Below, piece by piece: positions 21,901 to 41,254 of a stretch of 64,000 nucleotides of DNA. The translations under genes and the position numbers were made by a program. The stretch is from contig JBAUGX010000220.1 in NCBI GenBank assembly GCA_049679965.1, positions 33,583 through 97,582 on the forward strand, read 5' to 3'. Numbering within the stretch: position 1 is the stretch's first letter; each line of letters opens with the position of its first letter. The notes beneath the pieces were generated by a model. That model saw only the letters and a list, made by a program, of their open reading frames with translations. It had not been told where the DNA came from and made no database searches. This stretch comes from Vicinamibacterales bacterium. Lineage in GTDB: Bacteria > Acidobacteriota > Vicinamibacteria > Vicinamibacterales > CAVVIG01.

Positions 21901-21919
21901 GTAACAGATTCGTTTACAC
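21901..21919 (-). promoter_or_regulatory. Pho-box-like site between pstS (system 1) and glgC
   Basis: The minus strand reads GTGTAAACGAATCTGTTAC, with half-sites GTGTAA and CTGTTA (12-bp phase here). It lies 46 nt upstream of the pstS ATG and 30 nt upstream of the glgC ATG. Confidence 0.45.
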
Positions 21920-21948
21920 CTCGCCCCGATGTACCATTTTCCTGCCAC

Positions 21949-23229
21949 ATGGCCATTAACAACGAAGTCCTCGCGCTTATCCTCGGCGGCGGCCGGGGCA
22001 CGCGTCTCTTTCCACTGACCCAGCACCGATCGAAGCCAGCGGTGCCGATCGGCGGCAAATACCGGTTGATCGACATCCCGATCTCCAATTGCCTGCACGC
22101 CGACATCCGGCGCATTTTCGTGTTGACGCAGTTCAACTCGGCATCGCTCAACCGGCACATCTCGCAGACCTATCGGCTGGACCTCTTCAGCACCGGCTCG
22201 GTCGAAATCCTGGCCGCCGAACAGACGCCGGACAACCCACACTGGTTCCAGGGCACGGCCGACGCCGTGCGCCAGGCGACCCGGCACTTCGCGCGCCACG
22301 GCGCCGACTACTACCTCATCATGGCTGGCGATCAGCTGTACCGGATGAATTTCAACGACCTGATCGATGCCCACATCGATCGCCGCGCCGACGTGACCGT
22401 CGCGGCGTGCCCGGTCACCGTCCAGGATGCGTCAACCATGGGCATCTTCCGATTCGACCGCACCGGGCACATTGTCGCGTTCGAGGAAAAGCCGTCGCCC
22501 GCGCGGCTCGAGGAGATCGGCCAGAGCATTCCGCCGCACTCGACGCTGGCCGGTCACACACCGGGCAAGCCGTTTGTGGCCTCGATGGGGATCTACGTGT
22601 TTTCCCGCGATGTACTCTTCGACGCACTCGAGCGGGAGAGCTATAAAGATTTCGGCCGTGAAGTGATTCCTGCGGCGCTGGGGCAGTACCGGGTCGAGTC
22701 GCATCTGTTTCGCGGTTATTGGGCGGACGTGGGAACCGTGGCTTCGTTCTACCAGGCCAACATCGGGCTTACCGCGGCGAATGCACCGTTCACGTTCTAC
22801 GATTCGCGCTGCCCCATCTACACGCACGCGCGCTTCCTGCCGGGATCCCGCCTGAGCGACTGCACCGTGCGCAACACGGTCATCGCCGAAGGCTCGTTCC
22901 TCGAGCGCTGCACGATCGAAGATTCCATCGTGGGCATCCGCGCGGCCATCCAGCCCGGCACCTCCGTCCGGCGATCGGTGTTGCTCGGCGCCGATTACTA
23001 CGAACTGGACGACATCGCGCCGGCCCAGGGCGACAGACCGCCGCTCGGCATCGGACGAAACGTCGTCCTGGATGGCGTCATCGTCGACAAGAACGCCCGC
23101 ATTGGCGACGACGTCCGGCTGGTGAACGAGGCTGGCGTCCAGGAGGCCGATGGCGATGGCTACTACATTCGAGACGGCGTCATCATCGTGCCCAAGGACG
23201 GGGTGATACGGGCGGGGACCAGGGTCTAG
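21949..23229 (+). CDS. glgC: Glucose-1-phosphate adenylyltransferase
   Basis: ATG 21949. The N-terminus LILGGGRGTRLFPLTQHRSKPAVPIGGKYRLIDIPISNC is the canonical GlgC sequence. Confidence 0.9.
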   Translation: MAINNEVLALILGGGRGTRLFPLTQHRSKPAVPIGGKYRLIDIPISNCLHADIRRIFVLTQFNSASLNRHISQTYRLDLFSTGSVEILAAEQTPDNPHWFQGTADAVRQATRHFARHGADYYLIMAGDQLYRMNFNDLIDAHIDRRADVTVAACPVTVQDASTMGIFRFDRTGHIVAFEEKPSPARLEEIGQSIPPHSTLAGHTPGKPFVASMGIYVFSRDVLFDALERESYKDFGREVIPAALGQYRVESHLFRGYWADVGTVASFYQANIGLTAANAPFTFYDSRCPIYTHARFLPGSRLSDCTVRNTVIAEGSFLERCTIEDSIVGIRAAIQPGTSVRRSVLLGADYYELDDIAPAQGDRPPLGIGRNVVLDGVIVDKNARIGDDVRLVNEAGVQEADGDGYYIRDGVIIVPKDGVIRAGTRV

Positions 23230-23366
23230 CCCCCAGCCCCAATTTGGCCGCAGCGGCGTGTCACGCCGAGGATCCCTATTTGTAACGCGGTCGTCGCATC
23301 GCAGACACGGTGGCGTCGCGGCGTCCTCCTAGACTGGCTCGGTTCCACTTCAAGGAGGATTGCTGC

Positions 23367-25007
23367 ATGCGTGTACGAACGACAACACTGGCTCTCGCGC
23401 TCGTCGCGGTCGGGGCCTTCCCCGCCGCCGCGCAAGTCACACCCGGCACCGTGCCGGGAACGTTCCAGGGACCGACCAGCTCGCAGACGCCGTTCGTCGT
23501 CCCCGCCGCCGACGGCTGGGAGGTGGTCTCGCTCATCTCGGCAGGCGACCCCGCCAAGAACAACGGCTACCGAATGGTCGGGATTCCCGACGGCCTCGGC
23601 GCCGTGGCCGGCAAGTTCGAGGCGGGCCGATGGGGCCGCTACGTCGCCGACGAGAAGTACATGACGGTGTTCATGAATCACGAGATCCCGGCCGGTGGCG
23701 GCATCGCGCGCGCGCACGGCCAGAATGGTGCCTTCGTGTCGCAGTGGACCATTCAGCTGAACACCCTGCAGGTCAAGGCGGGCGAGGATCTGATTCAGGA
23801 TGTGTACACGTGGGACACCGCCAGCGGGCAGTACGTGTTCAACCCCACGGCGCAGTTCAACCGGTTCTGCTCAGCCGACCTGGCCGAGTTCACGGCGTTC
23901 TACAACCCCAGAACAGGCAAGGGCTTCTACGGCCGTCTCTTCATGAACGGCGAGGAGGCGGGGAACGAGGGCCGGGCGTTCGCCCATGTGATTACTGGCT
24001 CGGGAAAGGGCGACTCCTATCAGCTGGCCTCGCTTGGACGCCTCTCCTATGAAAACAGTGTCGCCAGCCCCAACTCTGGCGACAAGACCCTCGTGGTCAG
24101 CATGGACGACAGCACGCCTGGCCAAGTGTATGTGTACCTCGGCAACAAGCAGAAGACCGGCAATCCGGTCGAGCGTGCGGGTCTCGTCGGCGGGAAGCTC
24201 TTCGGCATCAAGGTGACCAACGGTGGCACGAACTACTCGGGCGCCGCCGTGACCCGCGAGAACAACGGCCCGATCAACGGGGCGTTCTCGCTCGTCGAGG
24301 TCTCCGACGCGGCCACGGGGACGGGCGCAGTGCTGCAGACGACGAGCACGACCAGGGGCATCACGGAATTCGCGCGCCCGGAGGATGGGGCGTGGGACAC
24401 GCTCAACCCGCGCGTTTTCTACTTCGTCATCACCGGTGCCACCATTGACGGCAAGCTGCAGTCGGCGCGCCTCTACAAGCTGACCTTCAACAGCATCACC
24501 AACCCGACCGGGGGCACGATCGAACCCGTGATCGACCGTGCAGACCTGCTGCCTTCAACGACGGGCTTCGCGCAATTCGACAACCTCACAGTCGACAGTG
24601 ACGGCTTCGTCTTGATTCAGGAAGATCCCGGCAATCAGGCGTATCTCGCGCAGACATGGCGAGTCAATCCCGCGACGAAGACCGCCACCGCGATCTTCCA
24701 CTCCGACGCGGCACGGTTTGGGTCGCCGGCGCCGGCCCCCTTCAACCTTGACGAAGAAAGCTCCGGCATCATCGAAGTGACGGACATCGTCAGGTCCGCA
24801 CGCTGGTACGAGCATGGCCGGCGGTATTTTCTGGCCGACATGCAGGCGCACTACGCCATCTCAGGCGAGTTGTTCGAAGGCGGCCAGCTCTACCTCCTCG
24901 CCTCGCCAAAGGCGCCGCGTCGACACTTCGATGACGACGACGACGATCGCGGCCGCGACAACGGTGGGTGGGACAACGACCATCACGGGCACGACGACGA
25001 GGATTAG
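23367..25007 (+). CDS. Secreted beta-propeller protein, DUF839/PhoX-like (putative phosphatase) with an acidic His-rich tail
   Basis: AAGGAGGA precedes ATG 23367. Sec signal ending AAAQ. The motifs YRMVGIPDGLGA, EFARPEDGAWD and FDNLTVDSDGFVLIQEDPG resemble PhoX-family blades. The tail is DDDDDDRGRDNGGWDNDHHGHDDED. Confidence 0.45.
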   Translation: MRVRTTTLALALVAVGAFPAAAQVTPGTVPGTFQGPTSSQTPFVVPAADGWEVVSLISAGDPAKNNGYRMVGIPDGLGAVAGKFEAGRWGRYVADEKYMTVFMNHEIPAGGGIARAHGQNGAFVSQWTIQLNTLQVKAGEDLIQDVYTWDTASGQYVFNPTAQFNRFCSADLAEFTAFYNPRTGKGFYGRLFMNGEEAGNEGRAFAHVITGSGKGDSYQLASLGRLSYENSVASPNSGDKTLVVSMDDSTPGQVYVYLGNKQKTGNPVERAGLVGGKLFGIKVTNGGTNYSGAAVTRENNGPINGAFSLVEVSDAATGTGAVLQTTSTTRGITEFARPEDGAWDTLNPRVFYFVITGATIDGKLQSARLYKLTFNSITNPTGGTIEPVIDRADLLPSTTGFAQFDNLTVDSDGFVLIQEDPGNQAYLAQTWRVNPATKTATAIFHSDAARFGSPAPAPFNLDEESSGIIEVTDIVRSARWYEHGRRYFLADMQAHYAISGELFEGGQLYLLASPKAPRRHFDDDDDDRGRDNGGWDNDHHGHDDED

Positions 25008-25036
25008 GCCAAGACGACGTGGCATAGCATAAGCAC

Positions 25037-25076
25037 GGAGGAAGGGGGCGGCGTCGGCTGCTCTCTTCCTCCTTTT
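25037..25076 (+). terminator. Rho-independent terminator after the PhoX-like gene
   Basis: GGAGGAAGGGGGCGGC / GCTGCTCTCTTCCTCC forms a stem of about 16 bp (three G-U pairs) with loop GTCG, followed by TTTT. Confidence 0.7.
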
Positions 25077-25193
25077 CACGGGTGGCGACGGCCTGTGTAC
25101 TTGCGGCGACGGACATGTTGCGCCCACGTTAAATGTCGCCGGACGGCGCACACACTGAGCGTGGCGAGTGATGTAGGCGAGTAACATGGTGAC

Positions 25194-25850
25194 GTGACGC
25201 TTCCCAGGAAGGCGGCAAGCGAGTTCATCGGGACGGCTCTGCTCCTGGCGGCAGTGGTCGGCTCGGGAATCATGGGCGAGCGACTCGCCGGCGGCAACGT
25301 CGCGGTCGCGCTCCTGGCCAACGCGATCGCAACGGGTGCCGTCCTGATCGCGCTCATCCTGACCTTCGCGCCGATCTCTGGCGCACATTTCAATCCCCTC
25401 GTGACGATCGCGGACGCCAGTCAGGGCGGGGCCTCCTGGCGCGACGTCCTGGCGTACGTGCCGGCACAGGTCTTCGGCGCCGTGGCGGGCGTAGCGTGCG
25501 CCAACACGATGTTCGGTGAGCCGGTGTTTGCCTGGTCCAGTCGCGCGCGCACGGGATTCCCGCAGGCGCTCAGCGAGGCTGTGGCCACCTTCGGCCTACT
25601 TTCGGTGATTGGAGGCTGTGCGAAGCGACGCCCGGACGCCGTAGCTTTCGCGGTCGGCGCGTACATCACCGGGGCGTACTGGTTCACCTCATCGACGTCG
25701 TTTGCCAATCCGGCCGTCACGGTCGCGCGAGCGCTGACGGATACGTTCAGCGGCATTCGCCCAGCCGACGTCCCAATGTTCCTGCTCGCGCAGGTGGTCG
25801 GCGCAACAGCGGCCACGCTCTACTTCCGCTGGCTCTTCTCGAAAGACTGA
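25194..25850 (+). CDS. MIP-family channel (AqpS-like putative arsenite/glycerol channel)
   Basis: GTG start. The NPL (HFNPLVT) and NPA (FANPAVT) boxes are present. Lies immediately upstream of arsC. Confidence 0.75.
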   Translation: MTLPRKAASEFIGTALLLAAVVGSGIMGERLAGGNVAVALLANAIATGAVLIALILTFAPISGAHFNPLVTIADASQGGASWRDVLAYVPAQVFGAVAGVACANTMFGEPVFAWSSRARTGFPQALSEAVATFGLLSVIGGCAKRRPDAVAFAVGAYITGAYWFTSSTSFANPAVTVARALTDTFSGIRPADVPMFLLAQVVGATAATLYFRWLFSKD

Positions 25851-25856
25851 GGTCTC

Positions 25857-26360
25857 ATGGCTCACTACAACGTCCTGTTTCTTTGCACCGGCAACTCGGC
25901 GCGCAGCATCATGGCCGAAGCGCTCCTCAACTACTGGGGGAAGGGCCGGTTCACCGCGTTCAGCGCTGGAAGCCACCCGAAGAAGGAGGTCCATCCGCTT
26001 GCGCTCGACGTGCTGGAGAAGAATCAGCTCCGGATAGACGGTCTCCGAAGCAAGAGCTGGGATGAGTTCGCGACGCCGGGCGCGCCGCCTCTCCACTTCG
26101 TGTTCACCGTCTGCGACCGTGCGGCGGCCGAAGTCTGCCCGATCTGGCCGGGCCAGCCCATGACGGCCCATTGGGGCATCGAAGACCCGGCGGCCTTTGA
26201 AGGATCCGACGAAGACAAACGGCGGGCCTTTAACCGTGCGTTTCGGGAACTCGACGCGCGGATCAAGATCTTCACGAGCCTGCGCCTCGAGGCGCTCGAT
26301 CAGTTGTCCTTGAAGCGTCAACTGGACGAGATTGGCAGACAGCCGCGTGCGAAGGACTAG
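25857..26360 (+). CDS. arsC: Arsenate reductase, LMW-PTP (thioredoxin-coupled) type
   Basis: The P-loop VLFLCTGNSARSIMAE and downstream Cys residues typical of ArsC of the LMW-phosphatase family. Confidence 0.85.
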   Translation: MAHYNVLFLCTGNSARSIMAEALLNYWGKGRFTAFSAGSHPKKEVHPLALDVLEKNQLRIDGLRSKSWDEFATPGAPPLHFVFTVCDRAAAEVCPIWPGQPMTAHWGIEDPAAFEGSDEDKRRAFNRAFRELDARIKIFTSLRLEALDQLSLKRQLDEIGRQPRAKD

Positions 26361-27175
26361 CGGAACACCCTCTCGGCCGTGTTCCAGCGAGTCGCCGGAT
26401 CGACGAGGCGGTAGGCGGGAAAGCGCGAGGACGGCGATCGAAGAAGGGCGGCATCGACGCCTGTCCGCACCTGCTCGGTCGAGAATCGGGTGAACCCGGC
26501 GCCGTCGGCCGTCGTGAAATCGCCTGGGAAGATCTGACTGTCACTCCACCACACGTCTCGGGCGACGGCCTCCTTGCGCATGGTCGTATAACGGTCGAAC
26601 CGAATCCCTCCCACAACGCGCGCCTGTCCAGTGGGCTCGAGTTCGGCGAGCAGATCAGCATCACATCCGAGCATCAACACAGAGGCCCACCCGCGAATCC
26701 CCAGCGCGGCATGCAACCCGCTTTCGTCGTACGTCACGATCACCTGCGAGGGATGATCGATGAGAAACCCCGACACGCGGCGGCGATCCCGGACACTGCG
26801 CTCGAACAGCCACTCGCGGCCCTCGGATGTCGCGACGTGGATGCGATCGGAGGTTCGCGAAATGGTCTGATGAAGAGTCTGAACGGTTCCGTCTGGTGCT
26901 TGACGGCGTACGGTCGCCTCCAGCGTTAGCGGCGCCACCCGGTCCGCGCCGGCCGGGAGAGCTGGGGGTGACGCCGGTGGATTGCTGAGCCCGACCCGGG
27001 CGGCTGCGACCGCCGTGGCGACCGCAGTCAACGCCAGGACGGCGATGGCCCAACTCCAACGCGCTCTCGTCGGCAGTGCCTCCCCGCGCGCCCGTGCCGT
27101 GCCTGGATCCACGCGATCGACGATAGCGGGCACCCATGACGTGCACATCACGGGCGCGTAAACGTTGTGCAACAA
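26357..27175 (-). CDS. Hypothetical membrane-anchored protein
   Basis: A single N-terminal hydrophobic helix (WAIAVLALTAVATAVAAA) and no recognised domain. Start uncertain. Confidence 0.4.
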   Translation of the reverse strand: MLHNVYAPVMCTSWVPAIVDRVDPGTARARGEALPTRARWSWAIAVLALTAVATAVAAARVGLSNPPASPPALPAGADRVAPLTLEATVRRQAPDGTVQTLHQTISRTSDRIHVATSEGREWLFERSVRDRRRVSGFLIDHPSQVIVTYDESGLHAALGIRGWASVLMLGCDADLLAELEPTGQARVVGGIRFDRYTTMRKEAVARDVWWSDSQIFPGDFTTADGAGFTRFSTEQVRTGVDAALLRSPSSRFPAYRLVDPATRWNTAERVFR

Positions 27176-27185
27176 AACGCCGGGC

Positions 27186-27191
27186 TATAAT
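27186..27191 (+). promoter_or_regulatory. Candidate -10 box TATAAT 9 nt upstream of the FAH-family ATG (leaderless-type)
   Basis: The context is GCTATAATGCCCACCCGATG, with no room for an SD. Confidence 0.4.
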
Positions 27192-27200
27192 GCCCACCCG

Positions 27201-28103
27201 ATGAAGTACCTGACCTTCTCGCTCCCCGACGACCGCACGCCGCGCACGGGCGTTGTCCTCAACAACGGCATCGCGGACGTGAACACACTCGTCGCCGGGA
27301 AGTGGCCAGGGGCTCCTCCGGCAAGCCTTCTCGACCTGATCCGTTCGGGACCGGACGCCTGGCAACGTATGGAGCGTCTGGCGAGTTCGGCGCGCGAAGG
27401 CCCGTACCGGGCCGAGGACATTCGCTGGCACGCGCCCATCCCACGGCCGCGAAAGAACATCTTCTGTCTCGGCCTGAACTACCGGAGCCATGCGATCGAA
27501 TCGGCGACCTCGCGCGGGCGAGAGGTCAAGATTCCCGACGCGCCGGTCATCTTCACCAAGGCGCCCACGACGGTGAATGGCCCGTACGATTCGATTCCCT
27601 GGGATCCGTCGGTCACCCAGCAGTTGGATTATGAGGCAGAACTTGGCGTCATCCTCGGTGCGGACGGGAAGAACATCCCCCGCGCCCAATCGCTCCGTCA
27701 TGTCTTCGGCTACACCGTCCTCAACGACACAACGGGGCGGGACCTGCAGGCCAGGCACGTTCAGTGGTTCAAGGGTAAGAGCCTGGACGGCTGCTGCCCG
27801 ATGGGGCCCGTCGTCGTGACCGCCGACGAGTTCGGCGATCCTCAGACCAAGCGCATCACGCTGCGCATCAACGGGGAGACCCGGCAGGATGCGAATACGG
27901 CCGAGATGCTCTTCCCCATCGACGCAATCATCGAATGGCTGTCCAAGGGCATGACGCTCGAGGCTGGGGACATCATCGCGACCGGGACGCCAGAAGGCGT
28001 CGGCCTGGGACGAACGCCGCCTGAATACCTCAAAGACGGCGATCTCATCGAAACCGAGATCGAGGGAATCGGGACTCTACGGAACCGAGTCGTCGGCGCT
28101 TAG
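27201..28103 (+). CDS. Fumarylacetoacetate hydrolase (FAH) family protein
   Basis: ATG 27201. The motifs GLNYRSHA, DYEAELGVILG and GKSLDGCCPMGP are typical of FAH-family hydratases/decarboxylases. Confidence 0.85.
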   Translation: MKYLTFSLPDDRTPRTGVVLNNGIADVNTLVAGKWPGAPPASLLDLIRSGPDAWQRMERLASSAREGPYRAEDIRWHAPIPRPRKNIFCLGLNYRSHAIESATSRGREVKIPDAPVIFTKAPTTVNGPYDSIPWDPSVTQQLDYEAELGVILGADGKNIPRAQSLRHVFGYTVLNDTTGRDLQARHVQWFKGKSLDGCCPMGPVVVTADEFGDPQTKRITLRINGETRQDANTAEMLFPIDAIIEWLSKGMTLEAGDIIATGTPEGVGLGRTPPEYLKDGDLIETEIEGIGTLRNRVVGA

Positions 28104-28309: not shown

Positions 28310-28373
28310 ATAATTCCCTCCCGCCCGCTTAGAAAAACAGCCTCTGTACCCTAATCCATGCCTCGAGGAAGCT

Positions 28374-28392
28374 GTGTAAAACGTGTGTTAAC
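28374..28392 (+). promoter_or_regulatory. Pho-box-like site in the gap between the pstA2 3' end and the 69-aa ORF
   Basis: GTGTAAAACGTGTGTTAAC, with half-sites GTGTAA (28374) and GTGTTA (28385), exactly 11 bp apart. Confidence 0.45.
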
Positions 28393-28463
28393 TCTGACAG
28401 CGCGTGCAGGTCGGTGTCAAAGTGGGAAGAAACACAGGGAAATTTGCGAAAAACACACGTTTT
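28378..28463. other. Perfect 12-bp inverted repeat AAAACGTGTGTT / AACACACGTTTT separated by 62 nt
   Basis: 28378-28389 is the exact reverse complement of 28452-28463. A further ACACA core lies at 28431-28437. The whole 208-bp gap is AT-richer than its surroundings. Confidence 0.6.
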
Positions 28464-31393: not shown

Positions 31394-31416
31394 TGGAACA
31401 ACCTCCACTTAAGTTA

Positions 31417-31447: not shown

Positions 31448-32719
31448 TCAGAAATTGAGCAACGCACGAATCGTGAACGTCTTGAACGTGGGTGTCGGAA
31501 GAAACGGACCGTTGGCGGTCAAACCCGGGTTGGTCTGCGTCGGGGCCGCCGTGCCGATCCCGCTGACGCCAACAAGCCCGCCGGTGGCATTGGGCACGCC
31601 CGGGCCCGTCGTGAGTCCGTCGAAGTCAAACATGATGGCCGTGGTCGCGCCGCCGGCCGGATGCGGGAACCAATACGCGATGCCGAGGACCACACGGTTC
31701 CGCTCCTGCTGCTCGAAGGTCACCGTGTTGGTGCCCGTCGTGACGGGAATCGCCGTGCTCCGGGTGTCGGGGACGAGGTGGTCGTATCGGACGAGTCCCT
31801 CCCACCCGAGGTTCCCGGCGCCTTGCTTCGGCACGGCCCAGATCGAGTAACCCTTGCCCTCCCGGTTGAAGGGGGTCCCGAGCGCCGTGCCCTGATCGTT
31901 GGCGATCATGTACTGGAACGCCGCGTTCACATACTGATGCTCGAACGTCACCGCGCCAATGAGTCGCTTCCGCTCGGAGTCCGTCTGGTAGCTGTCCTTG
32001 TCGTAGAAGACCGACGCACGCAAGCCGCGATAGAGCGGAGCCATCCTGGCAAACGGCCGGACCGTCACGCGAGTCCTCCACGCCTTCTGCTGGTTGGTCT
32101 CGGCCGCCTGGTAGTTCTCGCCGTTGTAGATGCCCGTGTGGACGTCGCCCCAGTTCGCCGGAAAGGTGTAGTGGAACGACGCGCCCCGGTCCGACGAGGA
32201 CAGATAGCCGCCGCTTCGCTCGCCGAACACGGTGCCCTGGAACCGATAGCGGTAGATGCCTTCCTCGAAGTCGATCCACGGCGTCTGCTGCTGCCCGAAT
32301 CGGACCCAGTTGGTTCGGCTGTTCTTGATCCAGTCGTCGAGGCTGAACTGCGCGTACGCGTACTTGATCCGCAACGGGTAACTGGTGCCGGCGACCAGGC
32401 CGGTGAGGTCCGGGCTGATCCGGTAGGAAATCAGGTGAGAGATGTTGCCGGTGACATTCAAGTACGTGCGGCCCACATTGAAGGCGCTTGGCGTGAAGTC
32501 CTGGCTGCAACCCGGGGTCGCCGCGCAATCAGCGGACGTGCCCTTCGGGCCGAGCATGTAGGTGTTGTCCAGGAACATCGTCATCCCGACCCGAAGGGAC
32601 TGCGTGTCGTCAGGCGGCACGAATCCGGCGGCCGGTGTGACCTGAGCGGATACCGTGGCCGCAAGGAACACCATCGGGGCAATCAAGGCAAAAGTGCGTC
32701 GCAAAGAAACCTCCTTCAC
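31448..32719 (-). CDS. Outer-membrane beta-barrel, putative phosphate-selective porin (OprO/OprP-like)
   Basis: Signal peptide ending SAQ, a Gly/Tyr/Asn-rich alternating sequence and a C-terminal F. It is the first gene of the pstS2C2A2 operon. The likely true start is TTG 32704, after AAGGAGG. Confidence 0.5.
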   Translation of the reverse strand: MKEVSLRRTFALIAPMVFLAATVSAQVTPAAGFVPPDDTQSLRVGMTMFLDNTYMLGPKGTSADCAATPGCSQDFTPSAFNVGRTYLNVTGNISHLISYRISPDLTGLVAGTSYPLRIKYAYAQFSLDDWIKNSRTNWVRFGQQQTPWIDFEEGIYRYRFQGTVFGERSGGYLSSSDRGASFHYTFPANWGDVHTGIYNGENYQAAETNQQKAWRTRVTVRPFARMAPLYRGLRASVFYDKDSYQTDSERKRLIGAVTFEHQYVNAAFQYMIANDQGTALGTPFNREGKGYSIWAVPKQGAGNLGWEGLVRYDHLVPDTRSTAIPVTTGTNTVTFEQQERNRVVLGIAYWFPHPAGGATTAIMFDFDGLTTGPGVPNATGGLVGVSGIGTAAPTQTNPGLTANGPFLPTPTFKTFTIRALLNF

Positions 32720-32791: not shown

Positions 32792-32839
32792 GTGTTACGT
32801 CGCTGTTAATTTCCCGTCGGCCGTAACGCCGCTGTAAAC
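32792..32839 (+). promoter_or_regulatory. Two Pho-box-like pairs upstream of the porin-pstS2 operon
   Basis: GTGTTACGTCGCTGTTAAT has half-sites at 32792 and 32803, 11 bp apart. CCGTAACGCCGCTGTAAAC has half-sites at 32821 and 32832, also 11 bp apart. The sites lie 72-120 nt upstream of the porin start, in inverted orientation relative to the gene. Confidence 0.4.
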
Positions 32840-32862
32840 GGCCGGGGCCGACGAGTCGGGCC

Positions 32863-33609: not shown

Positions 33610-33610
33610 G

Positions 33611-34366: not shown

Positions 34367-34431
34367 CCCCCTGCCATTCCTCGTAGGGTAACCGCCCGAT
34401 GTAACCGCTCCGCGCCGATGGCCTCATATCG

Positions 34432-34461
34432 GTGTGACGAATGTGTAAAATCCGTGTTAAA
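34432..34461 (+). promoter_or_regulatory. Triple Pho-box-like site centred in the GT2 / ppk1 divergent region
   Basis: GTGTGACGAATGTGTAAAATCCGTGTTAAA carries half-sites GTGTGA (34432), GTGTAA (34443) and GTGTTA (34454), exactly 11 bp apart. It lies 65 nt from the ppk1 ATG and 66 nt from the GT2 TTG. Confidence 0.5.
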
Positions 34462-34525
34462 TGAAGAGCCGGAAAGCCCTGCGGTCCGCGAGACGCGAAC
34501 TCCTCGCGGTACAATTCCGCGGGCC

Positions 34526-36619
34526 ATGGACACACTTCAGGGCGCTCAGAATTTCCTCGCGGAGCCGGCGAACTCCGACACCGACCTGAGGGATCCTCGG
34601 CTGTACATCAACCGTGAGTTGAGTTGGCTGGCGTTCAACGAACGCGTGCTGGGACAGGCCCGCAACGAAGCCCATCCCCTCCTCGAGCGGGTGAAGTTTC
34701 TCGCGATTGCCGCCAATAATCTCGACGAGTTCTTCATGATTCGCGTCGCGACGCTCACGCGTCAGCATCGGATGGGCGTCGCCGCGTCTTCGCCCGACGG
34801 GCTCACGGTCGGCGAGCAACTGACGGCCGTCCGGGCCCGCGCCGAGCGGATGCTGCGAGACATCGAGGCGTGCTGGGCACGCGACCTGCGGCCGTTGCTC
34901 GCCGCGGCGAACGTCGCGTTTCTCGATCCGGCGCAATACTCAACGGCGGTGGCCCGCTATCTGGGGCAGTACTTCCGCGCCAGCGTCTATCCGGTTTTGA
35001 CGCCGTTGGCCTTCGATCCCGGGCACCCCTTCCCCTACATCTCGAATCGCAGCAAGAGCTTCGCCGTGGTGGTCGAAGACCGGGGCGCGACGAAGTTCGC
35101 CCGCGTGAAGGTGCCCGACGTGCTGCCGCGCTTCGTCCCGGTGCCCGCGTCGATCTCGGGCCGCGCGGGCCAGACGTTCGCCTTTCTCGAGGACGTGATC
35201 CATCTGAACCTCGGGGACCTGTTTCCCGGAACGACCATCCAGGGCGCCCACCTCTTTCGCATCATTCGCGACTCCGACATCGTGCTTCGCGAGGAGGAAG
35301 GTGAGGACCTGCTCGAGTCGGTGGATCGCAGCCTGAAGGAGATGCGTCACGGACCGATCACGCTGCTGCAGATCGACGCCGACATGCCGGAGCGCGTGGT
35401 CACGATCCTCATCGAGAATTTCGCACCGCACCAGCCCGTCGTGGTCCCGACCGGGACGCGCCTGGGCATCGCCGATTGGTTTGCGTTGACGCGAATCGAG
35501 CGGCCCGAACTGAAGGATGTGCCATTTGTGCCGAGCGTCATCTGGCGCGGCCTCGACCCTGAAGCGGTGTTCGACCGGATCAAGAACCGCGACCAGCTGG
35601 TCCACCATCCCTTCGATTCGTTCGCGGCGGTCGAGACCTTCCTTGACGCGGCCGTCGAGGACCCGCATGTGGTGGCCATCAAGATCACACTCTATCGAGT
35701 CGGGGGCAATTCGCCCGTCATCGATCGCCTGATCGAAGCGGCCGACCGGGGCAAGCAGGTCGCCGTGCTCGTCGAGCTCAAGGCCCGCTTCGACGAGCGA
35801 AGCAACATCGAGTGGGCGACCCGGCTGGAAGAGGCTGGGGTGCACGTGGTCTACGGTCTGGTGAGTCTGAAGACGCACTGCAAGCTCTGCCTGGTCGTCC
35901 GCCAGGAGGGAGATCGCGTCGCGCGGTACGTGCACGTCGGCACCGGCAACTACAACCGGACCACAGCCTCGATCTACACGGACCTGGGCCTGTTCACCGC
36001 GAACGAGCAGATCGCGGCGGATGTGTCGGATCTGTTCAACTATCTGACCGGCTACTCGCGCCAGACCGAATACCGTACCTTGCTCGTGGCCCCCGTCGCG
36101 CTGCGTGAGCAGTTCACGGCGCTTGTGGATCGCGAAATCGCGCATGCGGCGGCCGGCCGGCCCGCGGGGATCATCATCAAGAACAACTCCATCTCGGATC
36201 CCGACATCATCCGCCAGCTCTATCGCGCATCGCGCGCCGGGGTTCGAGTCGATGCGATCGTCCGGGGCATCTGCTGCCTCAGGCCGGGCATTCCCGCCGT
36301 GAGCGACAGGATTCGGGTGCGATCGATTGTCGGGCGGTTCCTGGAGCACTCACGCATCTACTCGTTCGAGAACGGCGGCGACACCGAGATCTACATCGGC
36401 AGCGCCGACCTCATGGAGCGCAACCTCAACCGCCGCGTCGAGGCGTTGTGTCCGATCCTCGATCCGGAAGTCCGCCGCTACCTCCGGTTCGAGCTGCTCC
36501 CCACGTACTTGCGGGACGACACCAAGGCCACGGTCCTTGGACCGGACGGACGCTACCAGCGGATCCACGACACCAAAGCCGGTACGGTCGATGCGCAGCA
36601 CATCTTGATGTCTCGATGA
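34526..36619 (+). CDS. ppk: Polyphosphate kinase 1
   Basis: ATG 34526. The N-terminus YINRELSWLAFNERVLGQA...LERVKFLAIAANNLDEFFMIRVA and the rest are canonical PPK1. Confidence 0.95.
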   Translation: MDTLQGAQNFLAEPANSDTDLRDPRLYINRELSWLAFNERVLGQARNEAHPLLERVKFLAIAANNLDEFFMIRVATLTRQHRMGVAASSPDGLTVGEQLTAVRARAERMLRDIEACWARDLRPLLAAANVAFLDPAQYSTAVARYLGQYFRASVYPVLTPLAFDPGHPFPYISNRSKSFAVVVEDRGATKFARVKVPDVLPRFVPVPASISGRAGQTFAFLEDVIHLNLGDLFPGTTIQGAHLFRIIRDSDIVLREEEGEDLLESVDRSLKEMRHGPITLLQIDADMPERVVTILIENFAPHQPVVVPTGTRLGIADWFALTRIERPELKDVPFVPSVIWRGLDPEAVFDRIKNRDQLVHHPFDSFAAVETFLDAAVEDPHVVAIKITLYRVGGNSPVIDRLIEAADRGKQVAVLVELKARFDERSNIEWATRLEEAGVHVVYGLVSLKTHCKLCLVVRQEGDRVARYVHVGTGNYNRTTASIYTDLGLFTANEQIAADVSDLFNYLTGYSRQTEYRTLLVAPVALREQFTALVDREIAHAAAGRPAGIIIKNNSISDPDIIRQLYRASRAGVRVDAIVRGICCLRPGIPAVSDRIRVRSIVGRFLEHSRIYSFENGGDTEIYIGSADLMERNLNRRVEALCPILDPEVRRYLRFELLPTYLRDDTKATVLGPDGRYQRIHDTKAGTVDAQHILMSR

Positions 36620-36664
36620 TATCCACCCCTTCCGGCCCGGGTCCCGTGCTGTCGCTACTTGTTC

Positions 36665-36704
36665 CGTTAACCCACATTTAACCCGGCAGACACGAGCCGT
36701 TAAC
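36665..36704 (+). promoter_or_regulatory. Phased GTTAAC-type Pho-box-like sites upstream of the orphan response regulator
   Basis: CCGTTAAC (36664), CATTTAAC (36675) and CCGTTAAC (36697) are offset by 11 and 22 bp. The last site ends 30 nt before ATG 36734. Confidence 0.4.
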
Positions 36705-36733
36705 TTGCCTGTCGTACGGTGGGCCATTCTGTC

Positions 36734-37447
36734 ATGCCCACTCCACATCGCATCCTGATCGTCGAGGACGAACGCGACATCGCGGGCCTCATCAAGCACA
36801 CGCTCGAGCGCACGGGCGAAGCCAAGGCCGACATTGTGTCGAGCGGCGATGCCGCGCTCAAGGCGATGACCGAGCGGCCGCCGGATCTCGTCATCCTGGA
36901 TCTCAACCTTCCGGTTCTCAGCGGTCTGGACGTCTGCCGGCATCTTCGTGCCCGCTCGGATCTCCGGCACGTCCCAATCATCATGTTGACCGCGCGCACG
37001 AGCGAAGACGACCGCGTCAGCGGTCTCGAGCTCGGCGCCGACGACTACATCACCAAGCCGTTCAGCCTGCGGGAGCTCACGGCACGCGTGCGGGCCGTGC
37101 TCCGGCGGACCGCGGCGCGCGACGAACAGCCCGCCACCGGGACGTATCGGGGCGAGCACATGAGTGCCGACTTCGACGCCGTGGCCGTGACGGTCGACGG
37201 CGCTGCCATCCGGCTGACGCGTCGCGAGTTCGAATTGCTGCGGTATCTGGTCCAGAACAAGAACAGAGTGATCTCGCGCGATCGTCTGCTCGAGCGTGTG
37301 TGGGGCTACGACCGCCTGATCGAGACGCGCTCGGTCGATGTCCACGTCGGCCGCCTGCGGACGAAGCTCAGGACCGCAGGACGGCAGATCGAGACCGTCG
37401 TCGGCCTCGGATACCGCTTCGTGGACGAACAGCCGGCATCATCGTAG
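36734..37447 (+). CDS. OmpR-family response regulator with no adjacent kinase
   Basis: A receiver domain (DLVILDLNLPVLSG) plus a winged-helix domain. An alternative GTG start lies at 36719. Confidence 0.85.
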   Translation: MPTPHRILIVEDERDIAGLIKHTLERTGEAKADIVSSGDAALKAMTERPPDLVILDLNLPVLSGLDVCRHLRARSDLRHVPIIMLTARTSEDDRVSGLELGADDYITKPFSLRELTARVRAVLRRTAARDEQPATGTYRGEHMSADFDAVAVTVDGAAIRLTRREFELLRYLVQNKNRVISRDRLLERVWGYDRLIETRSVDVHVGRLRTKLRTAGRQIETVVGLGYRFVDEQPASS

Positions 37448-37471
37448 AATCTGCGGCGAGGAGCCATCCCA

Positions 37472-37906
37472 ATGCCGCAGACCCAGGACTTCAAGCACCA
37501 CGCCCGTTTCTATCCGCCGTTTCACTTCTTCGTGATTCCCGTGCTCCTGCTCAACTTCCTGAACTCGGTGCGTCACCTCTGGTTGGACCCCAGGCAAGGC
37601 ACGGTGTTCACCTTGATCGTGGCCGCGGCGGTCCTGATGCTCGGGTTCGCCTCTCGCCTGATGGCGCTGACGGCCCAGGACCGGATCATTCGGCTCGAGA
37701 TGCGGCTGCGGCTCCGGGATCTCCTGCCGCCCGACCTGCGGAGTCGCATCGACGAGCTGACGCCTCAGCAACTCGTCGCGCTGCGCTTTGCCGGCGACGC
37801 GGAACTGCCGGATCTGGTCCGCGATGTGCTGGCGGGAAATCTGCCGACGCAGAAGAGCATCAAGCAGCGTGTCAAGAACTGGCAGGCGGATCTCTTGCGG
37901 GTGTGA
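37472..37906 (+). CDS. Hypothetical two-TM membrane protein
   Basis: The N-terminus HHARFYPPFHFFVIPVLLLNFL is followed by a second helix and a charged C-terminal domain. No function inferred. Confidence 0.5.
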   Translation: MPQTQDFKHHARFYPPFHFFVIPVLLLNFLNSVRHLWLDPRQGTVFTLIVAAAVLMLGFASRLMALTAQDRIIRLEMRLRLRDLLPPDLRSRIDELTPQQLVALRFAGDAELPDLVRDVLAGNLPTQKSIKQRVKNWQADLLRV

Positions 37907-37911
37907 GGCGA

Positions 37912-38409
37912 CTAGCCGATCCTCCGCAGCATTCTCGAGGTCAGGAACCACCGCAGCTCGCCGGGCCCTGACGGCGGAAGCGCGTCGAGGTCAATGCGGC
38001 ACACCGCACCTTTCCTGAACGGGACGGCGTGGCGGGATCCGATGAGGCGCGCCGTCAGCTCGCCGATTCCCGGCTCGTGCCCCACGAGGGCGATGCGCGT
38101 CCGCTTGGTGTGCTTCTCGAGTTCAGCGGAGACCGCCGCATAGCTTCCCCCGGGAGCGAGCGACTCGGCCGTCACGAGGGCAGGCCGGGCGTCGAACCCG
38201 GCCGCAACGATTTCCGCCGTCTGCCGCGCTCGAACGAGCGGGCTGGTGAGGATGACGTCGAAAGAGACACCGAGTTCCGCGAGCCCGCGAGCCGCCTTGC
38301 GGAGCCGCGACATGCCTTTTGCCGTCAGAGGCCGCTTGTCGTCGTCGGGCCACGCCTCGCCACGCTCCTCGGCCAGCCCGTGGCGAATCAGATACAGCTC
38401 AAAAGACAT
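37912..38409 (-). CDS. sixA: Phosphohistidine phosphatase SixA
   Basis: LYLIRHGLAE...RPLTAKG...ILTSPLVRARQTAEI is the histidine-phosphatase RHG motif with SixA length. Confidence 0.85.
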   Translation of the reverse strand: MSFELYLIRHGLAEERGEAWPDDDKRPLTAKGMSRLRKAARGLAELGVSFDVILTSPLVRARQTAEIVAAGFDARPALVTAESLAPGGSYAAVSAELEKHTKRTRIALVGHEPGIGELTARLIGSRHAVPFRKGAVCRIDLDALPPSGPGELRWFLTSRMLRRIG

Positions 38410-38412
38410 CTC

Positions 38413-38508
38413 AAAGGTAAGACTGAAAAGTAAAAAGGGAAAAGTGGAGAGCGAAGCGAAATCCCGGCTAGGTCCTTTTGAGTCTTAACTTTTCAGTTTT
38501 TCCTTCAG
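38413..38508. repeat. Paired heptad tracts: purine-rich arm (38413-38462) and pyrimidine-rich arm (38474-38508) around the CHAD stop codon
   Basis: Arm 1 contains TAAGACT GAAAAGT AAAAAGG GAAAAGT. The reverse complement of arm 2 contains GAAAAGT TAAGACT CAAAAGG. The same 7-mers therefore occur in inverted orientation. Confidence 0.65.
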
Positions 38509-39388
38509 CCCCGCCGCTGCGCCCGCTGAGTCGCGCCGCCAGTTCCGCGAGCGCGCCGCGGTCGCGCACGTAGCGACCATGCAGTCGCCGGCACTCGTCT
38601 TCGAGCGGAACGACGAGCGTGTCGAGTTCGCGCCAGACGCCGAGATCCGTCGGAGCTGGCGAGGCCTGCATCTGACGAACCCGGTCGATGAGCACCTGCA
38701 AATCATGGAGGCGCCCGAGCACGCCCTGCGTCCTTCGCAGGTGGTTCAGAGCGCCCGGCGCCTGACCGCCTGTGGTCTCGGCAGACACCTCGAGCGCGTA
38801 TCGCAGCTTCTTGACGGCAATACGCACTGTATGCAGGCGGTCGGGCAGGTACACCCCGGCGGCCGCTGAGATTGCCTCGGACAAGGTCGCCGCTCGCCGC
38901 GCGATCCGTGCCTCGATCGCCCATCGCCACGTGCGCGACGCGGCCCGAGGCGGCCGCGCGCCCGCCGACTCCAGCCGCCGTTCGATCCTCTCCAGCTTCG
39001 CGGCCACCCGGTGCAGCTCAGTCAGCGTCGATTTCGTGAGCAGCCGCGCGCGCGCCCGGCGGCGCTCATCGCCGACGGCCAGGGCGACACGGGCCAGGGC
39101 CGGCCTTGAGTACCTCCCGGTCGCCGCCAAATCGTCGACCACAGCCAACAGGACGTCAAGCTCGCGCACCACACCAAACCGATCGGTGACGTGTTTGAGC
39201 CGGCGCGCCAGCTTGTGGGTCGTCTCGGCGTCGAGCTGCAGCACGGGGAGCAGTTCACGAAGGCGGCGCGACGCCACACGCGCCCGATGGAGCGACCGGT
39301 CGTTGCCGGCCTCGACGCCGTGTAACATCCGTGTAAACCGGTCGCGGCGCTTGCGGAGGAGTTCGTAACGGTCCAGTGACGTCGGCAT
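38468..39388 (-). CDS. CHAD-domain protein (polyphosphate-granule associated family)
   Basis: Repeated basic helices are present (RVASRRLRELLPV, VRIAVKKLRYALE). Adjacent to ppx. Confidence 0.8.
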   Translation of the reverse strand: MPTSLDRYELLRKRRDRFTRMLHGVEAGNDRSLHRARVASRRLRELLPVLQLDAETTHKLARRLKHVTDRFGVVRELDVLLAVVDDLAATGRYSRPALARVALAVGDERRRARARLLTKSTLTELHRVAAKLERIERRLESAGARPPRAASRTWRWAIEARIARRAATLSEAISAAAGVYLPDRLHTVRIAVKKLRYALEVSAETTGGQAPGALNHLRRTQGVLGRLHDLQVLIDRVRQMQASPAPTDLGVWRELDTLVVPLEDECRRLHGRYVRDRGALAELAARLSGRSGGAEGKTEKLRLKRT

Positions 39389-39447
39389 GATATAGGAAGG
39401 CGACGAAGTCTGGGATTATAGTCGAGCCGGCCTTCGTCCATATCCAG

Positions 39448-41205
39448 ATGCTCATTGCCGCCATCGACATCGGCACCAACTCGCTGCACATGATCGTGGT
39501 GCGCGTGCGGCCCGACCTGTCGTTTGAAATCGTCGATCGCGAGAAGGAAATGGTCCGGCTCGGCGCGGGCGGACTCGACGGTCGCGCGCTCACGCCGGAC
39601 GCCATCCAGGCGGCCGTTCGCGTGCTATCGAAATTCCGACGTCTCGCGGAATCGCGCCAGGTCGACAAGATCGTCGCCGTCGCCACGAGCGCCGTGCGTG
39701 AGGCCGAAAACGGCGGGGAGTTCCTGCACGCCGTGCGCGAGCAGACCGGCATCCGCGCGCGCGTCATCTCGGGGACCGAAGAGGCGCGGCTCATTCATCT
39801 CGCCGCCGTCTATGGCGTCGGATCGGGAGATGTGGCCGTCGTCATCGACATTGGCGGGGGCAGTGTCGAGATCACGCGTGGCGGCACCACGGTCGAGCGC
39901 GGGCGGAGCTTCAAGCTCGGCGTCATCCGGCTGACCGAGCGGTTCGTCAAGAGCGATCCCCTGTCATCGCACGACGAACGGAAGCTGGTCAGACACATCT
40001 ACGCGGAAGCCGGCAAGTACCTGGATGATCTCGCCCGCGCCGGGTTCAATCGCGTCATCGGCACCTCGGGGACCATCCTCAGTCTCGGTGCGCTCGCCGG
40101 GCAGCAGGGTCGCGAGACAGACGCCGCACTTCGTAACCGTCGCGTGTCGGCCAGGCAGCTTCGCCGCGTCAAGAAGCAGCTGCTGCCGCTCTCGCTGGAG
40201 AGGCGCCTTCGTCTGGTGGGGCTCGAGCCGCGCCGCGCCGATCTGTCGGTGGCCGGCATCGTGCTCCTCGACGCGATTGTCAGGCGCCTTGGCGCTGATG
40301 AGATCACGCTCTGCGACCTGTCGCTGCGCGAGGGCCTGGTGCTCGACTACATCGCCCGGCACCGGAAGGAGATCGTCCAGGTCGATCGGTACCCTGACAT
40401 CCGCCGCCGCAGCGTGATCGAGCTGGCCGAGCGGTGCAACTACTGGCCCGAGCACGCCGCGCAGGTGGCGCGACTGGCCCTCACCCTCTTCGATCAGACG
40501 CGAAGCGTCCATGCCCTCACCGATCGCGAGCGGGAATGGCTGGAATACGCGGCCTTGCTGCACGACATCGGGGTCCATATCAGCTACGAGGGCCATCACA
40601 AACACTCGCACTATCTCATCAAGAACGGGGACCTCCGTGGCTTCGAGCCCCAGGAAGTCGCCGCCATCGCCCTCGTTGCCAGGTACCATCGGCGCGCGAC
40701 GCCCAAGCGCGAACACGATGAGTTCGCCGACCTCCCGCGGGAGCGCCGACGAACGGTTCGCACGCTCGCCGCGATCCTGCGGCTCGCCGAGACCCTTGAC
40801 CGTAGTCACTCACAGAGCCTCTCAGGCGTCGAACTCCACGATCGCGGCAAGGACGCGCTGCTGCAAGTGCGGACGAGCGGCGACGCCGAGCTGGAACTGT
40901 GGGCTGCGTCGCGCCAGGCCGTGCCGTTCGAGCGCCTGATCGGCAAGCCCTTGCGTATCGAAGTCGGGACCGCACAGGCCGAACAACCCCGCAGAACGCC
41001 ACGGATATCCGGGAAAGCCGTTCGTCGTCGAACGAATCGACGGATCGGGCAAGACGCCGCAGCTCGGGCTGCTGGCCAAGTGGCTGCGCGCGGAGGGGCA
41101 CCGCGTGTTCGTCACCGAATCGAACTCGTGCGCCCTGGTCAAGGCGGCGACCACGACCGGGAAGAAGAAGAACGCGCCGATCGTCTTCGCAGACAGGCCG
41201 GGTGA
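39448..41205 (+). CDS. ppx: Exopolyphosphatase Ppx/GppA; the last ~75 codons read through a decayed downstream gene
   Basis: The N-terminal ASKHA fold (IAAIDIGTNSLHM) and an HD-like region (LHDIGVHISYEGHHKHSHYLI). After ...RIEVGTAQ the ORF continues, out of frame, over a thymidylate-kinase-like sequence. Confidence 0.85.
   Translation: MLIAAIDIGTNSLHMIVVRVRPDLSFEIVDREKEMVRLGAGGLDGRALTPDAIQAAVRVLSKFRRLAESRQVDKIVAVATSAVREAENGGEFLHAVREQTGIRARVISGTEEARLIHLAAVYGVGSGDVAVVIDIGGGSVEITRGGTTVERGRSFKLGVIRLTERFVKSDPLSSHDERKLVRHIYAEAGKYLDDLARAGFNRVIGTSGTILSLGALAGQQGRETDAALRNRRVSARQLRRVKKQLLPLSLERRLRLVGLEPRRADLSVAGIVLLDAIVRRLGADEITLCDLSLREGLVLDYIARHRKEIVQVDRYPDIRRRSVIELAERCNYWPEHAAQVARLALTLFDQTRSVHALTDREREWLEYAALLHDIGVHISYEGHHKHSHYLIKNGDLRGFEPQEVAAIALVARYHRRATPKREHDEFADLPRERRRTVRTLAAILRLAETLDRSHSQSLSGVELHDRGKDALLQVRTSGDAELELWAASRQAVPFERLIGKPLRIEVGTAQAEQPRRTPRISGKAVRRRTNRRIGQDAAARAAGQVAARGGAPRVRHRIELVRPGQGGDHDREEEERADRLRRQAG
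41003..41197 (+). pseudogene. Remnant of a thymidylate-kinase-like P-loop kinase gene (no start codon, truncated)
   Basis: The frame shared with ORF 41105-41344 reads GYPGKPFVVERIDGSGKTPQLGLLAKWLRAEGHRVFVTESNSCALVKAATTTGKKKNAPIVFADR. No ATG/GTG/TTG lies between the upstream stop (40937) and the P-loop. Similarity ends after FADR. Confidence 0.6.
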
Positions 41206-41235
41206 CGACCGTGTGCCGGGATGCGCCTGGCGGCA

Positions 41236-41254
41236 GAGTTACGCACAATTTACA
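41236..41254 (+). promoter_or_regulatory. Weaker Pho-box-like site upstream of pstB3-phoU2
   Basis: GAGTTACGCACAATTTACA has half-sites GAGTTA (41236) and AATTTA (41247), 11 bp apart. It ends 44 nt before ATG 41298. Confidence 0.35.

Follow-up and report, generated by a model that had tools for sequence, protein, structure and literature searches.

Tandem 11-bp repeats at phosphate genes as the probable Pho box of a Vicinamibacterales lineage (Acidobacteriota)

The PHO box, as defined in the literature, consists of two direct repeat units of 11 nt, each with seven conserved and four variable positions (PMC4415409), and the 11-nt direct repeat units of Streptomyces PhoP form simple and complex operators (PMC4415409, PMC2275107). 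Protomers of the actinobacterial regulator GlnR line up head-to-tail on a- and b-sites (gTnAc and GaAAC) with 6-nt spacers, up to four of them around the -35, and co-crystal and cryo-electron microscopy structures have revealed that R186, V190, R193 and R194 read GTAAC (PMC10235972). The present analysis concerns a 64-kb stretch of DNA (hereafter the window; GC content 65%) from a bacterium of the order Vicinamibacterales, phylum Acidobacteriota, in which 11-bp-phased direct repeats recur in the promoter regions of phosphate genes. These repeats are very probably the Pho box of this lineage and the predicted target of a PhoB-type regulator. They conform to the sequence-level definition, lie at the expected genes and are accompanied by a regulator of the expected type. 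Few bacterial phyla are as abundant in soil as the Acidobacteriota, whose order Vicinamibacterales figures prominently in surveys of phosphorus cycling. In the searchable literature, no description of a Pho box or of a delimited Pho regulon was found for this phylum.

The strict half-site [GC]TGT[TA]A occurs in 14 copies on the two strands of the window, and ten of these combine into five pairs, of which four have a spacing of exactly 11 bp and the fifth one of 12 bp. Four exact matches to STGTWA-N5-STGTWA were found against 0.00 expected from 100 dinucleotide shuffles of the window; with up to two mismatches there are 11 matches against 4.2 expected, a count reached in no shuffle. A scan of spacings from 4 to 36 bp, which presupposed no 11-bp period, yielded seven GTWA pairs at 11 bp (0.13 expected) and at most three at any other spacing. 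The recurrence of 11-bp-phased repeats, the central claim of the original prediction, is thereby borne out, the peak being confined to 11 bp, and every sequence that it quoted is indeed found where it was placed.

Alignment of 18 units defines a repeat of 11 bp with seven conserved positions, G-T-G-T-W-A-M, supported by G12, T13, G18, T18, W17, A18 and M18 at positions 1 to 7, and with practically no information at positions 8 to 11. The core is GTnAC, and GTTTC, which reads GAAAC on the opposite strand, is an allowed variant. The units are arranged head-to-tail in tandems of two to four. The core had been described as self-complementary, and GTWAC is pseudo-palindromic, yet the GT that extends it on the 5' side and the A-rich sequence on the 3' side give it polarity. 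When a position weight matrix (PWM) of the unit was applied with a dimer threshold of 12 bits, all dimers fell within 21.9-41.3 kb, and the rest of the window held only weak two-mismatch matches. The repeats of the window are tandem 11-nt units of seven plus four positions, as in the published definition (PMC4415409), and they are located where phosphate-starvation promoters, that of pstS foremost, would carry them, flanking pstS1, porin-pstS2, pstB3-phoU2 and ppk1/ppx. A home-made expectation-maximisation (EM) motif search of 32 intergenic regions returned only A/T-rich tracts and missed the motif; the failure is ascribed to its crude background model and is no evidence against the motif.

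Pfam and NCBIfam scans of the window proteins place an unusual density of phosphate genes at about 14-43 kb and confirm that the flanking genes are phosphate genes, as originally predicted: two pstS, pstC/A, pstB, two phoU, porin O/P, ppk1, ppx, CHAD and a PhoR-like kinase. Upstream of the pstS1-pstC1-pstA1-pstB-pstB-phoU1 operon (21854 to 16893, minus strand; pstS1 ATG at 21854) lies a half-site, GTGTAAA (21913-21919, minus strand; 12.8 bits), promoter-proximal and forward as in E. coli. The conserved 69-aa open reading frame (ORF) orf69 (28309-28100, minus strand) is preceded by the exact dimer GTGTAAAACGT GTGTTAACTCT (28374-28395, plus strand), reversed relative to the gene, and by a candidate -10, TAGGGT (28348-28353, minus strand). 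The porin O/P-pstS2-pstC2-pstA2 operon (32719 to 28518, minus strand) has a second exact match, GTGTTACGTCG CTGTTAATTTC (32792-32813, plus strand), upstream of the porin start at 32719, and 29 bp from it a weaker dimer with one mismatch, CCGTAACGCCG CTGTAAACGGC (32821-32842, plus strand; 17.3 bits). Three phased units, GTGTGACGAAT GTGTAAAATCC GTGTTAAATGA (34432-34464, plus strand), separate the GT2 and PHP genes, which lie on the minus strand between the porin operon and ppk1, from ppk1 itself (34526-36619, plus strand; ATG at 34526). Four units, AAGTTAACGGC TCGTGTCTGCC GGGTTAAATGT GGGTTAACGGA, read from 36706 on the minus strand (36663-36706), lie in the promoter of the orphan PhoB-like response regulator RR2 (36734-37447, plus strand), which is accompanied by a DUF6526 gene; in gene orientation they read GTTAAC / TTTAAC / GACAC / GTTAAC, and conservation points to a putative -10, TACGGT (36715-36720, plus strand), which follows the proximal unit's start by 16 nt, with the ATG at 36734. 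A strong exact dimer that the original prediction overlooked, GTGTAACATCC GTGTAAACCGG (39320-39341, plus strand), covers codons 17-23 of the CHAD gene and precedes the ATG of ppx by 107-128 nt. At pstB3-phoU2 the dimer ATGTAAATTGT GCGTAACTCTG (41234-41255, minus strand) is again reversed relative to the gene, and the full promoter in gene orientation (41238-41291, plus strand) comprises GTTAC at 41238, TTTAC at 41249, GAAAC at 41260 and GAAAC at 41271, followed by a candidate -10 from a four-genome alignment, TAGCCT (41286-41291, plus strand), and the ATG at 41298.

The sites reported at 36664 and 41236 were correct as to location and wrong as to strand, for they are good only on the minus strand: CCGTTAAC/CATTTAAC and GAGTTAC/AATTTAC are mirror readings of minus-strand units, and on the plus strand CATTTAA at the former scores 1.8 bits and AATTTAC at the latter -0.1 bits. 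The weak pair proposed at 25115/25126 was dropped, as its summed 10.1 bits stay below the 12-bit threshold, at chance level, and no conservation evidence was found for it.

An independent test was provided by the pstS loci of relatives, whose DNA took no part in defining the motif, the consensus having come from the window. A metagenome scan with PstS1 gave 80 loci at 53-86% identity, 57 of them non-redundant. Directly upstream of pstS (200 nt, 11.3 kb in all), 16 PWM dimers at a spacing of 11 bp were found, compared with 11 elsewhere (310 kb). The densities, 1.41 and 0.035 per kb, correspond to a 40-fold enrichment (Fisher p = 5e-17) in which many of the promoters share ancestry, so that p-values overstate independence, while the spacing specificity is independent of that, and the density beyond the window refers to about 440 kb of relatives' DNA. 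The remaining 11 dimers all lie 1.2-1.7 kb upstream of pstS, where they head an operon that is one or two genes longer, and spacings other than 11 bp gave zero to two matches upstream of pstS. Without recourse to the PWM, GTWAM pairs in 442 kb of relatives' DNA number 30 at 11 bp, 15 at 22 bp and at most five at any other spacing. The enrichment beside phosphate genes that the original prediction implied is thus seen in these loci. The distant pstS loci L132 and L157 carry TTCAC-type repeats instead. The CHAD protein of the window is 100% identical to a protein from a Vicinamibacterales genome in the NCBI data. Among species-representative genomes the nearest ppk1 belongs to Vicinamibacterales metagenome-assembled genomes (MAGs), at only 60-66% identity; a scan of the genome collection with ppk1 found no synteny beyond that gene, and the usable sites were only those next to ppk and a phosphodiesterase gene. 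Each of the 22-kb ppk loci L001 and L002 holds three matches at 11 bp; in L001 one of them adjoins ppk, and the other two precede the gene for an NPP-type phosphodiesterase.

Conservation extends to the other promoters. Contigs with a CHAD homologue provided three syntenic loci, L170, L171 and L172 (78%, 72% and 60% identity), in which three, four and four matches at 11 bp stand against zero to two at other spacings; of the matches at 11 bp, only one has no counterpart in the window. Loci with 60-84% protein identity keep orthologous boxes at pstB, RR2, GT2, CHAD and orf69, and the boxes stay conserved while the surrounding intergenic DNA diverges. The pstB dimers of the three relatives (GTGTAAATTCC CTGTAACGGAC; GTGTAAATTCC GCGTAACGCTC; GCGTTACGGCT GTGTAAAATCC GTGTAACGGCA) score 20-24 bits and share with the window site at 41255 both the strand relation and the 43-nt distance to the start codon. 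Across all four genomes the pstB promoter reads GTTAC-n6-TTTAC-n6-GAAAC-n6-GAAAC, about 10 nt, TAGCNT, 6 nt and ATG; as judged from this arrangement, the pstB3 mRNA is probably leaderless. The RR2 promoter of the window, L170 and L171 has GTTAAC, TTTAAC, GAYAC and GTWAAC, then an invariant CGTACGGTGG. In L171 the GT2 promoter keeps three units (TCATTTAAC.../GGTTAAC/GTCGCAC) with no ppk adjoining, so the boxes at 34432 probably belong to GT2-PHP no less than to ppk1. Between these boxes and the GT2 start, the window also shares with L171 a conserved block (34385-34423, minus strand; ACCGATRTGAKGCCRTCGGYGCRGAGC ... GGTTAYCCTACGMGGAATGGCAGGGGGTTGCGGA), which may represent a structured leader or else an additional regulatory element.

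The small protein encoded by orf69 matched no Pfam or NCBIfam family, and its gene is a real, conserved one, with six homologue clusters at 66-100% identity that always adjoin pstA and a fumarylacetoacetate hydrolase gene. The L169 homologue (75% identical) keeps GAGTTAACACACCTTTTACAT, followed after 21 nt by TACGGT, where the window has TAGGGT after 20 nt; in L168, orf69 stands 39 nt after pstA without a box and is co-operonic. Because it has either its own Pho box or a place fused into the pst operon, orf69 is a candidate member of the Pho regulon.

One box, that inside CHAD, lies in coding DNA. Codons 17-23 of the CHAD ORF (38468-39388, minus strand, beside a His_Phos gene) read CGG TTT ACA CGG ATG TTA CAC (RFTRMLH), and orthologous boxes are present at L170:4566-4587, L171:4210-4231 and L172:10048-10069. 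In well-supported genes of the window TTA accounts for two of 1,663 leucine codons (0.1%) and TTT for 20% of phenylalanine codons; TTT and TTA are nevertheless kept in all four CHAD orthologues, whereas neighbouring synonymous sites vary. The invariance of these rare codons, together with retention of the box in L171 without a divergent ppx, suggests a conserved intragenic operator under selection on the DNA itself. Its target may be ppx, acted on from far upstream, or CHAD, acted on from downstream of its conserved TATAAT. A CHAD start codon downstream of the 39320 box was considered and rejected, the N-terminus including RFTRMLH being conserved as protein in the four genomes. Separately, CHAD and ppx (ATG at 39448) appear to share a pseudo-palindromic -10 at 39415-39424, which reads GACTATAAT in the direction of CHAD and TATAGT in that of ppx and is kept in L170 and L172.

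The non-uniform orientation of the boxes, already remarked upon in the original prediction, resolves into two classes, one E. coli-like, as at pstS1, and one reversed and GlnR-like, as at most other promoters. In forward-class pstS promoters two units run in gene direction and a putative -10 hexamer, often extended to TGnTAnnAT, begins about 16 nt downstream of where the proximal unit starts; examples are L085 (ATGTAACGTCC GTGTAAACGAA TCTGGTAGAAT), L087 (GTGTAACAGGA CTGTAAAATCT GCTACGAT), L101 (ATGTAAACGCC ATGTAACGAAT TTGTTACAAT) and L159 (CTGTAACGAAA CTGTAACGAAT GACGG TATAAT, ending ...GACGGTATAAT). At the position corresponding to window 21919, the orthologous pstS1-type promoters of L085, L087, L101, L135 and L159 have two half-sites of this kind. 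The 12-bp-phased dimer proposed at 21919-21901 is accordingly rejected in part: GTGTAAA at 21919 stands, and the supposed second half-site, CTGTTACAAT, matches the extended -10 (TGnTAnnAT) of the relatives. Because the window promoter, GTGTAAACGAAT CTGTTACAAT, aligns with that of L101, CTGTTACAAT is read as an extended -10, which leaves one good unit at pstS1; the aligned element is TGTTACAAT at 21898-21906 (minus strand), with TACAAT as the candidate -10 hexamer at 21898-21903. The reverse class, represented by L092-L097 and L100, has (G)TTAACAC-N4-GAAACAT when read on the gene strand, and the stretch from there to TGnTAnnnT measures exactly 16 nt in all six. The distance from box to putative -10 is fixed within each class, and wherever a -10 is assignable next to the box, the centre of the proximal 5-bp core precedes the hexamer by about 12-14 nt in both. 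In many relatives, pstS is also preceded by TGCTAAGAT, then 11 nt and ATG.

With the strands corrected, only pstS1 in the window is forward, and orf69, porin-pstS2, GT2, RR2 and pstB3 are reverse. At the pstS-type, RR2 and pstB3 promoters, a conserved TAnnnT, the putative -10, follows the beginning of the proximal unit at 15-16 nt; the box of orf69 is set back by roughly another helical turn, 20 nt ahead of its candidate -10, and the GT2 and porin units, also on the opposite strand, are further still from theirs. As a separate observation, TAnnnT lies only 6-13 nt before the start codon, with no Shine-Dalgarno sequence, at glgC (21932-21951), ppk1 (34510-34528), RR2 (36715-36736) and pstB3 (41286-41300), which suggests leaderless or near-leaderless mRNAs for these four genes.

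Two OmpR/PhoB-family response regulators are encoded in the window, and the PhoB-type binder proposed earlier gains support from the first of them. RR1 (14402-15100, plus strand), placed by NCBIfam and Protein Data Bank (PDB) matches, has PhoB (TIGR02154) as its top NCBIfam model. Its gene overlaps by 4 nt, and is translationally coupled to, that of a PhoR-like sensor histidine kinase (15097-16854, plus strand) with HAMP, PAS, HisKA and HATPase domains, and phoU1-pstBBACS1 follows. The kinase scores 310 bits with the PhoR model TIGR02966 (cut-off 334), the PnpS and WalK models scoring slightly higher. The best full-length PDB match of RR1 is the mycobacterial phosphate regulator RegX3 (8e-57); its DNA-binding domain is closest to actinobacterial GlnR (8HML, 8HIG, 8HIH; 4e-27). 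The recognition helix is identical to that of Saccharopolyspora erythraea GlnR, including contact residues R186, V190, R193 and R194, and the domain stretch differs at three or four positions outside the helix. The head-to-tail binding mode of GlnR fits the unit found here and the four-unit promoters of pstB3 and RR2 (PMC10235972). By its position beside a PhoR-type kinase and pstSCAB-phoU, and by its PhoB-type DNA-contact residues, RR1 has the attributes of a functional PhoB orthologue, as far as sequence can tell. The helix of E. coli PhoB reads RTVDVHIRRLR, and its base-contact residues match those of RR1 (shared pattern RTVDVH(I/V)RRLR).

The sequence data establish directly the motif, its period, its conservation and the genes that it accompanies, and from these the binder, the sign of regulation and the positions of promoters are inferred. 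Under limitation of inorganic phosphate (Pi), the PhoR-like kinase would phosphorylate RR1, and dimers or tetramers of RR1 would then contact the phased units by way of the winged-helix recognition helix; once bound, RR1 would recruit RNA polymerase to promoters in which a good -10, often of the extended type, stands without a -35.

Among the alternatives, the one that survives best holds that the repeats are operators of RR2 rather than RR1, governing a separate polyphosphate or phosphate-storage regulon, or that the two paralogues partition the sites. RR2, 49% identical to RR1, lies inside the cluster, and the four boxes in the promoter of its own gene have the look of autoregulation; its conservation in L170 and L171 is 90-92%, and its recognition helix, TRSVDVHVGRLR, retains the residues equivalent to GlnR R186, V190 and R194. 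However, the position of GlnR R193 is occupied by glycine in RR2 and by arginine in RR1, which matches GlnR and PhoB exactly. Moreover, L172 keeps its boxes at pstB, CHAD and a 41-aa ORF with no RR2 beside DUF6526 and with an RR1 orthologue (80% identity, identical helix) nearby, and pstS boxes occur on dozens of contigs in the wider lineage. An RR2-centred scheme therefore appears unlikely. Since L172 keeps the boxes without RR2 at the syntenic position and the RR1 helix matches GlnR, RR1 is favoured as the primary binder, and RR2, a conserved and probably Pho-regulated paralogue, may share or modify the sites.

A second alternative supposes a regulator unrelated to phosphate, GlnR-like and devoted to nitrogen or another member of the OmpR family, with co-location at phosphate genes reflecting incidental cross-regulation. 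The half-site core GTnAC/GAAAC with 6-nt spacers is that of the actinobacterial GlnR box (PMC10235972), and the DNA-binding domain of RR1 is closest to GlnR, as described. The box and helix match, but RR1 is no orphan, being paired with a cognate PhoR-like kinase beside the pstSCAB-phoU operon, and the sites in the window and its relatives all flank pstS, pstB-phoU, ppk, ppx/CHAD, porin O/P or phosphodiesterase genes and none flanks nitrogen genes, which makes this account very improbable. The least credible account, AT-rich promoter composition or core elements (-10-like TGTTACAAT, UP elements) in place of a transcription-factor site, can point to an AT-rich motif in a 65% GC genome, to one claimed half-site that is really an extended -10 and to the generic A/T-rich tracts of the naive EM search, but it is contradicted by enrichment specific to 11 bp and its multiple 22 with none at neighbouring spacings, by boxes conserved amid diverged flanking intergenic DNA and by a box held in coding DNA by rare codons.

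Several observations nonetheless weigh against a simple Pho box read by RR1, in addition to the shared ancestry and the extent of relatives' DNA given with the counts above. Orthologous pstS promoters split into seven forward and seven reverse, which is unusual for a single activation geometry and means that lineages differ in the orientation of the box. No plausible -10 lies close to certain boxes, the distance being about 49 nt at ppk1 and about 79 nt at ppx, with a range of 40-80 nt for ppk1, ppx and GT2, and all -10 assignments were made by eye and by conservation. A sigma-70 and terminator scan of 21.6-41.5 kb found two promoter-like sites against 2.6 expected and is uninformative on the -10s, a low yield that would be expected if Pho promoters have no -35. 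RR1 and RR2, for both of which PhoB is the top-ranked model, score 244.2 and 229.5 bits, below the TIGR02154 equivalog cut-off of 296.2.

The orientation and position of the boxes might even encode the regulatory logic of a two-regulator circuit, a tentative and rather doubtful idea. The forward, E. coli-like box at the pstS1 uptake operon would be read as classical activation, and the reversed, GlnR-like multi-unit boxes of polyphosphate and signalling genes (pstB3-phoU2, RR2, GT2-PHP, orf69) and the CHAD operator would be read differently, in sign or in the regulator bound, with RR2 as the paralogue bearing an Arg-to-Gly helix change. To our knowledge, a feed-forward Pho circuit of this kind has been described in no phylum.

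Overall, the motif is well supported computationally and useful for regulon prediction, but unsurprising. If the consensus is validated, Pho regulons could be predicted from MAGs by 11-bp-phased GTGTWAM, its GAAAC variant and a TGnTAnnnT -10. The conserved 69-aa protein, the GT2-PHP operon, CHAD/His_Phos and the orphan PhoB paralogue with DUF6526 are nominated as regulon members, and the sites are precise probes for electrophoretic mobility shift assays or DNA affinity purification sequencing (DAP-seq). Further, the DNA-reading head of GlnR, which serves nitrogen control in actinobacteria, would appear to serve phosphate control elsewhere.

The remaining gene content of the region may be noted briefly. 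The pstS1 operon is followed by glgC and a weak PhoX-like gene, a MIP gene with an ArsC/LMWP-type phosphatase gene, and fumarylacetoacetate hydrolase; His_Phos/CHAD are followed by ppx, pstB3-phoU2 and citrate synthase. An exact look-up of RR1 led only to contigs of 1.1-1.4 kb. Two genes with Thymidylate_kin Pfam matches, possibly PPK2-type kinases, lie between ppx and pstB in the relatives (L170:1469-2714, L171:1114-2569, L172:6881-8174) and are absent from the window, where the pstB3 promoter directly follows ppx. Pyrimidine-rich leaders also surfaced in the EM search of intergenic regions: near-identical ones, both without a Shine-Dalgarno sequence, abut the start codons of gltA (43176-43205, plus strand; TTTTCCCTTTTCACTTTTCACTCT) and His_Phos (38410-38446, minus strand; TTTTCCCTTTTTACTTTTCAGTCT), and a comparable T-rich tract lies 3' of the kinase stop codon (16855-16890, plus strand). 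They may act as translation-enhancer-type leaders.

Finally, the design at this locus can be set against the known systems. The E. coli PhoB box (CTGTCATA(A/T)A(A/T)CTGTCAY), like the one here, has at least two head-to-tail 11-bp units of seven conserved and four variable positions, a core T-G-T-n-A and A-rich 3' flanks, and the pstS-type promoters are E. coli-like in that the box runs along the gene direction, would replace the -35 and precedes the putative -10 hexamer by 16 nt from the proximal unit. At E. coli pstS the -10 lies about 17 nt after the start of the proximal unit, a layout essentially the same as that of the forward class. Unlike in E. coli, the consensus here is GTGTWAM and not CTGTCAT, and most boxes of the window lie on the strand opposite to the regulated gene; CTGTCAT-N4-CTGTCAT itself had no match in the window at up to three mismatches (3.25 expected). 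In Bacillus subtilis, PhoP repeats are TT(A/T/C)ACA with a period of about 11 bp, and TTAACA is the reverse complement of TGTTAA, the hexamer found here. These repeats stand on the coding strand, as in the reverse class, and PhoP sites also occur inside coding regions, as does the CHAD site; B. subtilis differs in belonging to another phylum and in being monoderm rather than diderm. Streptomyces PhoP and mycobacterial SenX3-RegX3 share 11-nt direct repeats of variable number and arrangement (PMC4415409, PMC2275107), although the Streptomyces unit is GTTCACC rather than GTGTWAM. The actinobacterial GlnR box (gTnAc a-site, GaAAC b-site; PDB 8HML/8HIH) has the same 5-bp core, 11-bp period and 6-nt spacers, and the pstB3 promoter, GTTAC-n6-TTTAC-n6-GAAAC-n6-GAAAC plus its candidate -10, mirrors the a1-b1-a2-b2 layout of GlnR around the -35 (PMC10235972). 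In Actinobacteria, GlnR controls nitrogen metabolism as an orphan regulator, whereas RR1 is kinase-paired, belongs to the Acidobacteriota and would have phosphate genes as its only targets. By sequence, the repeats described here appear closest to the GlnR box and also to the PhoP repeats of B. subtilis.

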